DNA from: Candidatus Fermentibacteraceae bacterium
GTDB taxonomy: Bacteria; Fermentibacterota; Fermentibacteria; Fermentibacterales; JCC-6
Length of the DNA stretch: 22,082 nt
Assembly: GCA_041686025.1 (NCBI GenBank)
Contig: JAWLEP010000040.1
Coordinates: forward strand, 1-22,082
Direction of reading: 5' to 3'
Numbering within the stretch: the first letter of the stretch is position 1; every line of letters starts with the position of its first letter. Positions 11,919-15,124 of this stretch are shown piece after piece. The notes below the pieces were generated by a model. That model was given only the letters and a program-made list of their open reading frames with translations. It was not told the origin of the DNA and did not search any database. A program made the translations under genes and the position numbers.

Positions 11919-11947
11919 ACGCTAGCCTATCGCAGCGCTTCGGTCAA
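11919..11947 (-). promoter_or_regulatory. Candidate sigma70 promoter for the beta-barrel gene
   Basis: Minus strand TTGACC-N17-TAGCGT; the -35 overlaps the HAD stop codon. Confidence 0.45.
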
Positions 11948-12630
11948 CTGCCGAGAACCAGGTCACGCACCTGTGGCAGCGAGGTGGCGTCCAGTACGCG
12001 CCGGCCCTCGTCGGGAAAGCCCCCATCCGGAGAGAGCAGTACGAAATCCACCCCTGCCGCTTCCGCCGCCGGCAGATCGCTTGACGTGCTGTCGCCGGCG
12101 AACAGCGTGGTCTGCGGCGATGCCTCCAGCAGCCTCATGGCCAGGCCGAGTATCTCCGGGTCGGGCTTGGCCATGCCCGCCTCGCAGCTGAGCACGATGG
12201 CGTCCAGGTACTCTATGATGCCCGACTCCCGGATCCTCGGCCTCTGGACCTCGCCTGGGCCGTTGGACACCAGGCCGATGGATATGCCGGTCTCCTTCAG
12301 CTTCCGAAGCGTCTCCAGCGCCCCCTCGACGGTGCCGTGGTGCATGGAGAGGTGGCCGTAGTAGCGGTTCAGGAACTCCGCGGGGTCGGCTTCCACGCCG
12401 CATCTGCGGAAAGCGTTCTCCATTCCGGGGGAGTCCTTTCCCGGCGCCCCCGGTCGGCAGGCCTCCAGCGCCTGCACCTCGTCGGAATCCACCAGCTCCA
12501 GCAGCTTCTCCTCGGGCACGTGCAGCTCCATCTCCGCGGCGGTGGCGCTCACCGCCTCGCGCTGCGCCGAGGCGTAGTCCAGCAGCGTCCCGTCCAGGTC
12601 GAAGATCACTGTCTCGTACTTGCGCTCCAA
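11944..12630 (-). CDS. HAD-family hydrolase (YjjG/subfamily IA-like)
   Basis: IFDLDGTLLD, VSNG, GMAKPDPEI, AGDSTSSDL; TTG start at 12630 behind AGGAGAGGGGGG, 28 nt after the cysK stop. Confidence 0.88.
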   Translation of the reverse strand: MERKYETVIFDLDGTLLDYASAQREAVSATAAEMELHVPEEKLLELVDSDEVQALEACRPGAPGKDSPGMENAFRRCGVEADPAEFLNRYYGHLSMHHGTVEGALETLRKLKETGISIGLVSNGPGEVQRPRIRESGIIEYLDAIVLSCEAGMAKPDPEILGLAMRLLEASPQTTLFAGDSTSSDLPAAEAAGVDFVLLSPDGGFPDEGRRVLDATSLPQVRDLVLGS

Positions 12631-12658
12631 GCGGCCCCCCTCTCCTGTGGAATGCCGG

Positions 12659-13564
12659 TCACAGGTAGTTGAAACCATGGTCGGGGAAGACGGTGGCGAC
12701 AACTCCCCCGCCCATCTCGGCCCCCAGCGTCATGGCCGCCTCCAGCGCCGCCCCGCTGGAGGGGCCCACGGGATGCCCCAGAGACGAGGCTACCCAGCGG
12801 GCCAGCTCCCGCGCCCTGTCCGCCGAGACCTCCGCAAGGGGGACTCCGGCCAGCCTTCTGTGGAGCGGGACATTCCGCGGGTCGGGCCTTCGGATGCCGG
12901 ATATGGCGCCCTCCCGCCGGGGCATGGCTCCCAGCAACGCCGGCTCGCCGCCCGCCGTGCGCAGGGCCTCGGCCACTCCCAGCAGCGTGCCCCCGGTGCC
13001 CACCGCGGCAGCGAAGCCGTCCACGGCACCGTCGGACTGACGCAGTATCTCCGGCCCCGTGGTAAGCGCGTGGGCAGTGGGGTTGAGCCCGGTGCCGTGC
13101 TGGTCCAGGTAGACGCAGCCGGGGCCATTCGCCGCAGCCATCGCCCTTGTCTGAGCCCCGGCGGTGCCCTCTTCGGAAGGTGTCACGGTGAGCCTGGCCC
13201 CCAGGCACCTGATCCTGGCCAGCCGGGCGCCCCCTGCGTTGCGGGGGACGAACAGCCAGGCCCGGACCCCCAGCCTCCCGGCGGCAAGGGCCAGGGCGAC
13301 GGCAGTGTTCCCCGAGGAGGCCTCCACGAAGGTGGCCTCTTCCAGTTGGGGTGCACGCCTGAGCCTCTCCTCGAGAACGAACGAGGCCACCCGGTCCTTC
13401 ACCGAGAGGCCGGGGTTCATGGATTCCAGCTTGGCCAGAATGGTCACCCCCGCCGGAGCCTCGGGGGGAGTCGCCTCTACCAGGGGGGTGGGCTGCCAGG
13501 CAGTGCGCTGCCCGGTCCGATCAGACCCTGCCGCCCTCTCTTCGCTTCTCGTCTTCGTGATCAC
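12659..13564 (-). CDS. cysK: PLP-dependent cysteine synthase family protein (CysK/CysM-like, divergent)
   Basis: PTPLV, KLESMNPGLSVKDR (PLP Lys), ASSGNT, TTGPEI, GTGGT, GPSSGA, FPDHGFNYL; GTG start 7 nt after GAAGGGA. Confidence 0.85.
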   Translation of the reverse strand: MITKTRSEERAAGSDRTGQRTAWQPTPLVEATPPEAPAGVTILAKLESMNPGLSVKDRVASFVLEERLRRAPQLEEATFVEASSGNTAVALALAAGRLGVRAWLFVPRNAGGARLARIRCLGARLTVTPSEEGTAGAQTRAMAAANGPGCVYLDQHGTGLNPTAHALTTGPEILRQSDGAVDGFAAAVGTGGTLLGVAEALRTAGGEPALLGAMPRREGAISGIRRPDPRNVPLHRRLAGVPLAEVSADRARELARWVASSLGHPVGPSSGAALEAAMTLGAEMGGGVVATVFPDHGFNYL

Positions 13565-13673
13565 GTGAGCATCCCTTCATCTGCACGTTCCATCCCTCAT
13601 CCACCGGGTCAGCCGGCGGGGGACAGGTGCAGGTGAAGGCTTGGGGCAGCGGCATCCCTTCCCTCACGGTCAT
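13521..13673 (-). CDS. Putative Cys-containing leader peptide 2 (50 aa) overlapping the cysK start
   Basis: GGAGGGAGAA-ATG; MTVREGMPLPQAFTCTCPPPADPVDEGWNVQMKGCSRDHEDEKRREGGRV; the CTCP codons lie in the 5' arm of the anti-SD hairpin. Confidence 0.6.
   Translation of the reverse strand: MTVREGMPLPQAFTCTCPPPADPVDEGWNVQMKGCSRDHEDEKRREGGRV
13574..13639 (-). promoter_or_regulatory. Long hairpin sequestering the cysK Shine-Dalgarno
   Basis: mRNA CCUUCACCUGCAC-CUGUCCC-CCGCCGG-[CUGAC]-CCGGUGG-AUGA-GGGAUGG-AAC-GUGCAGAUGAAGG: 12/13, 7/7 and 7/7 pairs (G-U allowed); the 3' end includes GAAGG of the SD. Confidence 0.7.
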
Positions 13674-13686
13674 TTCTCCCTCCATC

Positions 13687-13711
13687 AAAAAAGCCCGCCT
13701 CGAAGGCGGGC
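13687..13711 (-). terminator. Intrinsic terminator inside the cysK 5' leader (attenuator)
   Basis: mRNA GCCCGCCU-UCG-AGGCGGGC-UUUUUU; no full-length gene upstream on this strand for it to terminate. Confidence 0.85.
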
Positions 13712-13737
13712 CGTCCAGGCTGCGAGCTGCTGCGCAC

Positions 13738-13803
13738 CTAACCCGCCTGCGGATCACCTCCGCCTTCGGGACAGGTACACGCAACGGCCATTGATATATT
13801 CAT
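13738..13803 (-). CDS. Putative Cys-containing leader peptide 1 (21 aa, or 17 aa from ATG 13791)
   Basis: MNISMAVACTCPEGGGDPQAG*, starting 11 nt after the -10 box (near-leaderless). Its last codons (AGGCGGGUU) are complementary to the terminator 5' arm. Confidence 0.6.
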   Translation of the reverse strand: MNISMAVACTCPEGGGDPQAG

Positions 13804-13819
13804 GATCGCGTGCTAGACT
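13791..13819 (+). promoter_or_regulatory. sigma70-type promoter of the mrp-MBL-hydG operon
   Basis: TTGATA(13791-13796)-N17-TAGACT(13814-13819), with extended -10 TG at 13811-13812. Confidence 0.6.
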
Positions 13820-13843
13820 AACAGATTCCGGTTTGTTGGTCAA
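13815..13843 (-). promoter_or_regulatory. sigma70-type promoter of the cysK leader
   Basis: Minus strand TTGACC(13843-13838)-N17-TAGTCT(13820-13815), with extended -10 TG. Confidence 0.65.
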
Positions 13844-13906: not shown

Positions 13907-15124
13907 ATGGATATGAGCGCGGAGGAGAAGAAGGGCGGATTCCAGATAGAGAAGTCCCCGGCGAAGCACAACATACTCGTGCTTTCCGGAAAGGGCGGCG
14001 TAGGCAAGAGCACGGTGGCGGCCAACCTGGCGCTGTCTCTCTCCCTGCAGGGCAGGAGGACCGGACTGCTGGACGCCGACTTCCACGGCCCGAGCATCCC
14101 CAAGATGCTGGGGCTGGAGGGCAAGAGGCTGGCCATGGAGAATGATAAGATCCTCCCGGTATCCCTGGGGGACCTGAAGGTGATCTCCGTGGACTTCATG
14201 CTGGAGCAGCGCACCGACCCGGTGATATGGCGCGGGCCCATGAAGATGAACGTCATAAAGCAGCTGCTGGAGGACGTGGCCTGGGGCGACCTGGACTACC
14301 TGGTGATCGACAGCCCGCCGGGAACCGGTGACGAGCCCCTGTCCGTGGCCCAGCTTGTCCCCGAGCCCACCGGGGCCCTGATAGTCACCACGCCGCAGGA
14401 CGTGTCCACCTCCGACGTACGCCGCTCCATATCCTTCTGCCGGGCGGTGAACCTCCCGGTGCTGGGCGTTGTGGAGAACATGGCGGGACTGGTCTGTCCC
14501 CACTGCGGAGAGACCATAGACCTGTTCGGCCAGGGCGGGGGGGAGCGGATGTCCGAGGAGATGGGGGTGCCCTTCCTGGGGCGTATTCCCATCGACCCCG
14601 CCATCGTGAAGAGCGGCGACAGCGGCAAGCCCTTCTCCTACTGGGAGTCAGAAAGCCCCTCCGGCTCGGCCTTCACCGAGCTGGTGGAGAGGCTCTCCGG
14701 CAGGATCGAGTCCGGTAACGTCCCCGACAGTGCGCCCGAGCCTGCAGCGGAACCCGAGGCCGACGACTCCCCTGCGGATGAGACGGTTACCGCGGCCTTT
14801 CCCGTGGAGTCGGGCAGGGTCTGCGCCCACTTCGGCCACTGCAGGGAGTTCGTGTTCCTCACCGCCGACTGCGGCACCGCCGAGGTGAGGGAGAGGAGGG
14901 TGCTGGAGCCTCCGAAGCACGAGCCTGGGGTGCTTCCCCGCTGGGTCAGCGAGCAGGGAGCGAGCGTTGTGGTATCGGGGGGCATGGGCAGAAAGGCCCG
15001 GGACCTCTTCGAGAAGGAGGGCGTGCAGGTGGTCACGGGAGCCCCGGAGCGGGAGCCCGAGGAGCTGCTGAGGGACTACCTCGATGGCCGGCTGGAGACC
15101 GGGCCCAACGCCTGCTCCCACTGA
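13907..15124 (+). CDS. Mrp/ApbC/NBP35 Fe-S cluster carrier ATPase fused to a NifX/NifB-family domain
   Basis: GKGGVGKST, DADFHGPS, IWRGP, DYLVIDSPPGTGD, ENMAGLVCPHC; linker; C-terminal HFGHC...HEPGVLP...GGMG...NACSH. Confidence 0.92.
   Translation: MDMSAEEKKGGFQIEKSPAKHNILVLSGKGGVGKSTVAANLALSLSLQGRRTGLLDADFHGPSIPKMLGLEGKRLAMENDKILPVSLGDLKVISVDFMLEQRTDPVIWRGPMKMNVIKQLLEDVAWGDLDYLVIDSPPGTGDEPLSVAQLVPEPTGALIVTTPQDVSTSDVRRSISFCRAVNLPVLGVVENMAGLVCPHCGETIDLFGQGGGERMSEEMGVPFLGRIPIDPAIVKSGDSGKPFSYWESESPSGSAFTELVERLSGRIESGNVPDSAPEPAAEPEADDSPADETVTAAFPVESGRVCAHFGHCREFVFLTADCGTAEVRERRVLEPPKHEPGVLPRWVSEQGASVVVSGGMGRKARDLFEKEGVQVVTGAPEREPEELLRDYLDGRLETGPNACSH

Follow-up and report, generated by a model that had tools for sequence, protein, structure and literature searches.

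A candidate two-tier cysteine leader ahead of a CysM-like gene in Fermentibacterota

The locus described here raises the question of whether one leader RNA can sense the charging of tRNA-Cys twice in series, first to control transcription and then to control translation of the gene behind it. The DNA analyzed, here called the window, is a 22,082-nucleotide (nt) stretch, contig JAWLEP010000040.1 (assembly GCA_041686025.1) of a Candidatus Fermentibacteraceae bacterium whose genome is designated G000. On its minus strand, from 13843 down to 13521, lie in order a predicted promoter, a first upstream open reading frame (uORF1), a terminator, a Shine-Dalgarno (SD) sequence, a second such frame (uORF2) with a hairpin, and then a gene for a CysM-like protein; each of these elements was found where a preliminary description of the locus had placed it. 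On balance, the evidence favors a leader with two Cys-codon frames in series, uORF1 acting as a transcription attenuator and uORF2 as a translational attenuator, with full expression only when charged tRNA-Cys is short. The elements, all on the minus strand, are:

13815..13843, minus strand, predicted sigma70-type promoter: TTGACC (13843-13838), 17 nt, TAGTCT (13820-13815), with a TG extension
13738..13803, minus strand, uORF1: 21 codons, MNISMAVACTCPEGGGDPQAG, with Cys codons at 13779-13777 and 13773-13771
13726..13785, minus strand, predicted 1:2 (anti-antiterminator) hairpin, from folding, with the Cys codons of uORF1 in its 5′ arm
13704..13748, minus strand, predicted antiterminator: AGGCGGGU (13748-13741, the last uORF1 codons) pairs with GCCCGCCU (13711-13704, the terminator 5′ arm)
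13686..13712, minus strand, intrinsic terminator: 9-bp G+C stem (13712-13692) followed by a U-tract
13677..13684, minus strand, SD of uORF2, with a hybridization energy of −9.8 kcal/mol
13521..13673, minus strand, uORF2: 50 codons, containing FTCTCPPP, with Cys codons at 13631-13629 and 13625-13623
13574..13639, minus strand, predicted SD-sequestering hairpin: uORF2 Cys codons in the 5′ arm, 3′ arm ending in the gene SD
12659..13564, minus strand, gene for a CysM/CysK-like pyridoxal phosphate (PLP) enzyme: 301 aa, GTG start at 13564, PF00291

In the proposed scheme, the first tier would work as follows. When Cys-tRNA is ample, a ribosome at the uORF1 stop would cover the antiterminator arm and the terminator would form; in the absence of translation, the 1:2 hairpin would hold the same arm and the terminator would again form. 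When Cys-tRNA is short, stalling of the ribosome at the Cys codons would keep the arm available for pairing with the terminator 5′ arm, and RNA polymerase would read through. On the read-through mRNA a ribosome would then load at the strong SD right behind the terminator to begin the second tier. With ample Cys-tRNA it would pass the gene start in another frame, and the hairpin would then close again on the gene SD; under Cys shortage, a stall about 60–70 nt upstream would prevent the 5′ arm from pairing, and a second ribosome would find the SD exposed. We infer that both uORFs are translated and that ribosomes stall in them when Cys-tRNA is lacking, and the alternative structures are predictions from folding.

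The evidence comes mainly from relatives. Matches to the CysM-like protein at E ≤ 1e-30 were found in 20 of 70 genomes of the phylum. Nine of these genomes form the clade of the window (loci L001–L009, the window's own locus among them), with 42–78% identity and members in seven genera and all three families; the comparison of leaders is based on these nine loci. The nine genomes are kin, and p-values computed across them overstate. The remaining 11 matching genomes carry a more canonical clade of cysteine synthases (32–35% identity), referred to below as the sister clade. Metagenome and genome-contig scans gave, among the matches listed, distant homologs at no more than about 42% identity, with the exception of one ortholog (L116, 46%, Ca. 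Aegiribacteria) that was not counted among the nine. A protein search returned 28 clade members, which came without DNA context; a protein 99% identical to that of the window is labeled as coming from a Candidatus Fermentibacteraceae bacterium.

All nine loci have a short, Cys-rich uORF1 with two to four Cys codons, and the encoded peptides are unrelated (examples are MAICCCGRTG, MLYSCCERMD, and MYLQTECQICTETGFR). Despite the unrelated peptides, the uORF1 stop lies 27–34 nt before the terminator core in every locus, and the core itself, CCCGCC..GGCGG-U, is also present in all nine. Cys triplets in this region numbered 24 in frame vs. 1 and 4 in the other two frames (p = 6e-8 over nine loci that, as kin, are not independent). 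For the folding of tier 1, a ribosome footprint was walked along uORF1 on the nascent RNA. In seven of the nine loci, capture of the terminator 5′ arm by a G-rich segment, located at the uORF1 stop or immediately behind it, was much greater with the ribosome on the Cys codons than with the ribosome on the stop. The values for Cys vs. stop were 1.00 and 0.70 vs. 0.49 in the window, 0.68–0.77 vs. 0.03 in L005, and 1.00 vs. 0.20 in L008. Naked RNA from the window formed the long 1:2 hairpin together with the terminator; in the Cys-stalled model the two antiterminator segments were paired, and with the ribosome at the stop the terminator formed instead.

Three observations weigh against this reading of tier 1. 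The contrast between Cys and stop positions was absent in L007 and marginal in L003. There is no SD for uORF1 in the window (hybridization energy +1.0 kcal/mol) or in its congener. Finally, RNAalifold recovered only the terminator from the tier-1 region, whose core is nearly invariant and so offers no covariation to read. Even so, conservation and folding with a modeled ribosome make it very likely that tier 1 is a classical leader-peptide transcription attenuator.

Because uORF1 lacks an SD and only 11 nt separate its start from the −10 box, we regard it as near-leaderless; transcription would begin near 13808-13806. The pattern TTGACN-17-TANNNT, read by eye, occurs at the matching place in eight of the nine orthologous loci and is unclear in L005. 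A consensus promoter scanner did not call the leader promoter, whose −10 box fits the consensus at only 3 of 6 positions. On the opposite strand, a sigma70-like promoter (13791-13819, plus strand, TTGATA-17-TAGACT) overlaps the leader promoter and the uORF1 start and faces a Mrp/NUBPL-NifX gene at 13907. Because the −10 boxes of the two strands overlap, the promoters may compete. Between 13300 and 14400, the site at 13712-13686 is the sole terminator-like site.

For tier 2, uORF2 was selected blind to Cys codons, as the start with the best SD within 50–60 nt after the terminator. This start opened an out-of-frame uORF of 29–78 codons in all nine loci, with SD energies from −5.8 to −11.5 kcal/mol. 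In the sister clade the same rule picked out the start of the gene itself in 9 of the 11 loci, the other two having long inserts; the extra uORF is therefore specific to the clade of the window. In the window, uORF2 overlaps the GTG of the gene out of frame by 44 nt, and its Cys codons precede the start of the gene by 67 and 61 nt. From their starts to the ribosome binding site (RBS) of the gene, the nine uORF2 sequences contain 17 in-frame Cys codons in 309 codons. Dinucleotide shuffles had a mean of 6.2, and none of 5000 reached 17. CxC or CC occurred in five of the nine (shuffle mean 0.2), and the presence of at least one Cys codon in all nine had a P of 0.0014 in shuffles. The distribution of TGY among the three frames, uORF2 frame first, was 17/10/4 (p = 0.011, or p = 0.033 with one locus per genus, the genomes being kin). 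All 17 Cys codons are located 53–88 nt ahead of the start of the gene; only 2 more occur in the 235 codons that follow. We did not rely on a windowed version of the frame test (17/5/4, p = 0.0008), the window for it having been picked after the data were seen.

The arrangement of the Cys codons varies. T-C-T-C is found in the uORF2 of L001, L004, L005, and L008, and L006 has four alternating Cys codons with different spacer codons. In the window both uORFs encode Cys-Thr-Cys, and both read TGY ACC TGT CCC, as had been described. The cassette is not a conserved feature, however: no other locus has it in both uORFs, and in identical form it is not kept beyond the genus. What is shared by all nine loci is a Cys-rich uORF1 and an SD-led uORF2 with at least one Cys; conservation of CxC motifs in both uORFs, which the preliminary description had suggested as a check, is limited for uORF2 to the five loci named here. 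In the window, three Pro codons (13622-13614, minus strand) follow the second uORF2 Cys codon, as they also do in the congener, and could add a pause; they are not conserved in the other seven loci. In L007 (uORF2 start 1352, plus strand), a C run with one additional base makes the difference between a single-Cys and a Cys-Thr-Cys reading; the base is either a natural indel or an assembly error.

The predicted hairpin of the window pairs the GAAGG of the gene SD (GAAGGGA, 13578-13572). Its folding gave a z-score of −1.8 over 191 nt and −2.25 over 115 nt. A ribosome footprint on the Cys codons made the RBS easier to open, by 2.6–5.2 kcal/mol, in eight of the nine loci.

Several results weigh against a Cys-reading second tier. 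Four loci (L002, L003, L007, and L009) have a single Cys codon in uORF2. With another folding window, the gain from stalling was 1.5–2.0 kcal/mol in the window's own locus, 0–0.5 in L002, and nil in L003. Cys codons were only modestly better placed than other codons for opening the RBS (mean rank 0.35–0.37 vs. 0.5). In a 100-nt window, the RBS was more closed than in shuffles only in L001, L002, L004, and L005, where 5, 1, 1, and 2 of 60 shuffles, respectively, reached the same closure; the SD-pairing arm of L008 falls outside that window. RNAalifold found no pairs in the tier-2 region and no structure common to the genera. In the congener, the stem is kept by a compensatory change from U-A to C-G that destroys one Cys codon and therefore supports the stem more than the codon; there the uORF2 ATG has also become ATC, leaving a GTG. 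Because four loci have a single Cys and no structure is shared, we grade tier 2 as probable: the SD-led out-of-frame uORF in all nine loci and the enrichment of Cys codons argue, with moderate force, for a translational attenuator that reads Cys codons. The earlier proposal that Cys-tRNA is read twice is thus supported for transcription by conservation and by modeled-ribosome folding, and in part for translation.

The strongest alternative is that only tier 1 senses cysteine. The downstream structure would then be an anti-SD hairpin in which an arm of the CCUGU type encodes Thr-Cys by coincidence, and uORF2, if translated at all, would merely unfold the hairpin or dampen initiation regardless of cysteine. 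The codon pair xCC-UGY places CCU, which is complementary to AGG or GGG, across a codon boundary, and pairing alone could favor these letters. The congener, which retained a base pair and lost a Cys, behaves as this explanation expects, as do the single-Cys loci and the ten TGY triplets in the +1 frame; in L003 the Cys codon is well downstream of the SD-pairing arm. Pairing does not predict a reading frame, however, yet 17 of 31 TGY triplets are in the frame of uORF2, as are 13 of 17 CTGY, the latter in a window chosen after seeing the data. L006 keeps the periodicity of its Cys codons while the spacers differ. Nor is it obvious what a constitutive brake would be for if placed behind an attenuator; the sister clade lacks one. 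We consider this explanation unlikely, although it is the one to be taken most seriously beside a leader that reads cysteine in both tiers.

A second alternative is that tier 2 is an ancestral Cys sensor that is decaying or lost in the four single-Cys loci and perhaps weak in this genome. The patchy number of Cys codons among loci is consistent with decay, as are the loss of a Cys codon and the ATG within the window's own genus and the lack of a modeled tier-2 switch in L003. Against decay stand the four single-Cys loci themselves, all of which keep an SD-led uORF with an in-frame Cys codon at 59–68 nt before the gene, and the shuffles, in which Cys codons in every locus were rare; in the window, moreover, uORF2 has two Cys codons and the hairpin is strong. 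We regard this alternative as improbable.

Other roles for uORF2 are more improbable still. The recurrence of T-C-T-C across three families could point to a peptide that binds metal or sulfur through CxC. A conserved small protein was rejected, however: the uORF2 products (29–78 aa) match no Pfam family and, the Cys patch aside, share no conserved residues. Reinitiation between leader and gene has been proposed (PMC4833913). As a booster for the gene it was rejected, since the uORF2 stop lies 44–134 nt past the gene start in eight of nine loci vs. a gap of 10–11 bp in that proposal. The gene lies in the +1 frame of uORF2 in six of nine loci, as an N-terminal extension by frameshifting at hungry Cys codons would require; such a fusion is blocked in the window, where the gene frame (open for 305 aa) has a stop four codons ahead of the GTG, and this candidate was also rejected. 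Finally, it is scarcely credible that the leader as a whole arose by chance, or that it is a T-box or ligand-binding riboswitch not read by ribosomes: GC-rich DNA folds readily and the naked-RNA z-scores are only −1.8 to −2.5, but in-frame Cys codons are conserved where the nucleotide sequence is not, no Rfam family matched the window or 11 related loci at gathering score, and SAM and T-box models, whose exclusion had been suggested earlier, gave no match even at E ≤ 10, the only matches being to hairpins below threshold.

The sister clade (L010 and L026–L035; genera g9 and g2) has its own single-tier Cys attenuator in all 11 loci, with a leader of 25–29 codons containing Cys-Cys, followed by a terminator; in most of these loci the leader is leaderless by promoter spacing. 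In L010 and L030, long A/C/G-rich repetitive inserts with AAGCAGC-like units lie between terminator and gene, several hundred bases long in L010. A scan for the tandem architecture covered 169 of 180 loci (the other 11 had too little upstream DNA); it missed L005 and so was not exhaustive. Outside the two Fermentibacterota clades, it found a Cys leader with a terminator only in L106, L160, and L170, and no second Cys uORF in these three (L170 read by eye). L170 (titled Salinivenus; about 2231-2395) and L106 have poly-Cys leader peptides and a terminator before distant cysteine-synthase homologs.

In two related contigs, the listed indels were all outside uORF1 and uORF2, and none of the listed substitutions was inside the leader. 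Against the congener, the one indel is at the U-tract. Of the 21 listed sequencing runs, 4 were covered, all as contigs. An RNA library yielded one contig of 214 nt that is identical to 13470-13683 (uORF2 and the gene start); it was given no weight, because one contig by itself is no evidence of transcription, of transcript ends, or of level.

We also asked what the leader controls. The preliminary description had named the gene as the cysteine synthase cysK. The protein of the window scored 177 bits with TIGR01136 vs. a cut-off of 344 and fell below all NCBIfam cysteine-synthase cut-offs; five clade members scanned with TIGR01136, 01138, and 01139 scored 144–203 bits vs. 344, and L026 of the sister clade was above the TIGR01136 cut-off. 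The best PDB matches of the window protein were CysM. The motifs SVKDR (with the PLP-binding lysine), SSGN, and GTGGT were invariant in the nine-sequence alignment and aligned to CysM 2jc3. Judged by profile scores and alignment, the product is a divergent CysM-like protein and not the canonical cysK. The gene behind it is:

11944..12702, minus strand, HAD hydrolase (YjjG-like); start uncertain, a TTG at 12630 following an SD-like run

The two genes are probably co-transcribed. Because a HAD gene follows the CysM-like gene in only four of the nine loci, we place it outside the conserved unit.

No cysE above the TIGR01172 cut-off was found in any of 11 genomes searched (G000 and 10 relatives; completeness 80–98%). 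The only other PALP enzyme found in G000 was TrpB2-like. Because the switch would turn on when Cys is short, it implies a biosynthetic enzyme. The regulatory logic thus predicts that the divergent CysM-like clade is biosynthetic in genomes that yielded no cysE, and such a role points to another acceptor substrate. Fermentibacterota (Hyd24-12) are described as anaerobic fermenters predicted to make few amino acids, cysteine included (PMC5030696). The full proposal, a leader as old as the phylum in which two leader peptides read Cys-tRNA twice, gating first a terminator and then the SD of a CysM-like enzyme that makes cysteine without serine acetyltransferase, is one toward which we lean slightly. 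ARAGORN found one tRNA-Cys (GCA) and one tRNA-Sec in G000. A coarse scan of the same genome over 84 terminator-like sites found no other convincing amino-acid leader.

The two tiers had been likened to an AND gate. Both tiers would read the same signal, however, and the arrangement is better described as a sharpened single-input switch; the expected gain is a steeper response with less leak and continued control over existing mRNA, and not the AND of two inputs. If both tiers work, the leader offers a natural test of what a second, translational reading adds in steepness, in lower leak, and in shutting off mRNA already made. One-tier and two-tier versions exist side by side in Fermentibacterota. 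If true, it would extend cysteine attenuation, which has been demonstrated experimentally in mycobacteria, to an uncultured phylum of the FCB group. The tandem pair could also be reused as a low-leak cysteine biosensor.

The leader peptide of the Bacillus subtilis anti-TRAP operon has three Trp codons. In this system (rtpA/yczA), uncharged tRNA-Trp is sensed at transcription termination and then at translation by stalling on the leader peptide (Chen and Yanofsky 2003 and 2004, as summarized in PMC10327191 and PMC4027176). The likeness is that the charging of one tRNA is read twice in series, transcription before translation. The difference is that the first tier of anti-TRAP is a T-box and its amino acid is Trp, whereas here both tiers would be leader peptides read by ribosomes, and the amino acid is Cys. 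The Fermentibacterota leader would work like that of anti-TRAP, yet no T-box was found, so it would not be a member of that family.

With trp/his-type attenuators, tier 1 shares a short uORF of cognate codons, an antiterminator overlapping its end, and an intrinsic terminator with a U-tract. The uORFC-8-2 motif, predicted before cysS in Rhodobacterales (PMC8632094), likewise has two Cys codons and a terminator. Both are single-tier systems, and uORFC-8-2 belongs to another phylum and gene; the leader described here has a second uORF after the first, and in two loci its uORF1 is near-leaderless. The second tier is closer to the mycobacterial Ms5788A, a poly-Cys small open reading frame whose Cys codons pair with an SD region that is released by stalling (10.1101/834739); actinobacterial cys leaders without terminators have also been predicted (PMC1262725). 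In both Ms5788A and the leader described here, where it is a prediction, Cys codons lie in an arm pairing with the downstream SD region, and stalling frees the SD. Ms5788A differs in being leaderless and first in its transcript, with a long poly-Cys run and no upstream terminator, whereas uORF2 is SD-led and internal, has one to four Cys codons, and overlaps the gene out of frame.

Other leaders combine two elements. Salmonella mgtCBR has the tandem attenuators mgtM and mgtP, which respond to ATP and Pro-tRNA (PMC3641672); as here, the leader has two translated uORFs and the second governs a stem holding the downstream RBS, but the two signals differ, the mechanism is described as transcription attenuation, and the operon is one of virulence. 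Transcription and translation attenuation are combined in B. subtilis vmlR (PMC9226507), and ermB has two leader peptides (PMC8274638), so that each shares one aspect with this leader; the signal in both is antibiotic-induced stalling rather than amino-acid supply, and vmlR is described with one uORF. In the literature covered (main text of full-text papers, with few subscription papers), we found no case of one amino acid being read by two leader peptides, the first at a terminator and the second at an SD, no such tandem pair for cysteine, and no attenuator in Fermentibacterota. The suggestion that the tandem architecture had not been described holds, within that literature, for a pair of same-amino-acid leader peptides and not for the logic: two-level sensing of one tRNA is already known from anti-TRAP, and what appears new is the combination of a Cys-codon transcription attenuator with a probable translational tier. 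The leader would correspond to the anti-TRAP tandem sensor with ribosomes doing the sensing in both tiers, and the single-tier attenuators of the sister clade would serve as a natural control.

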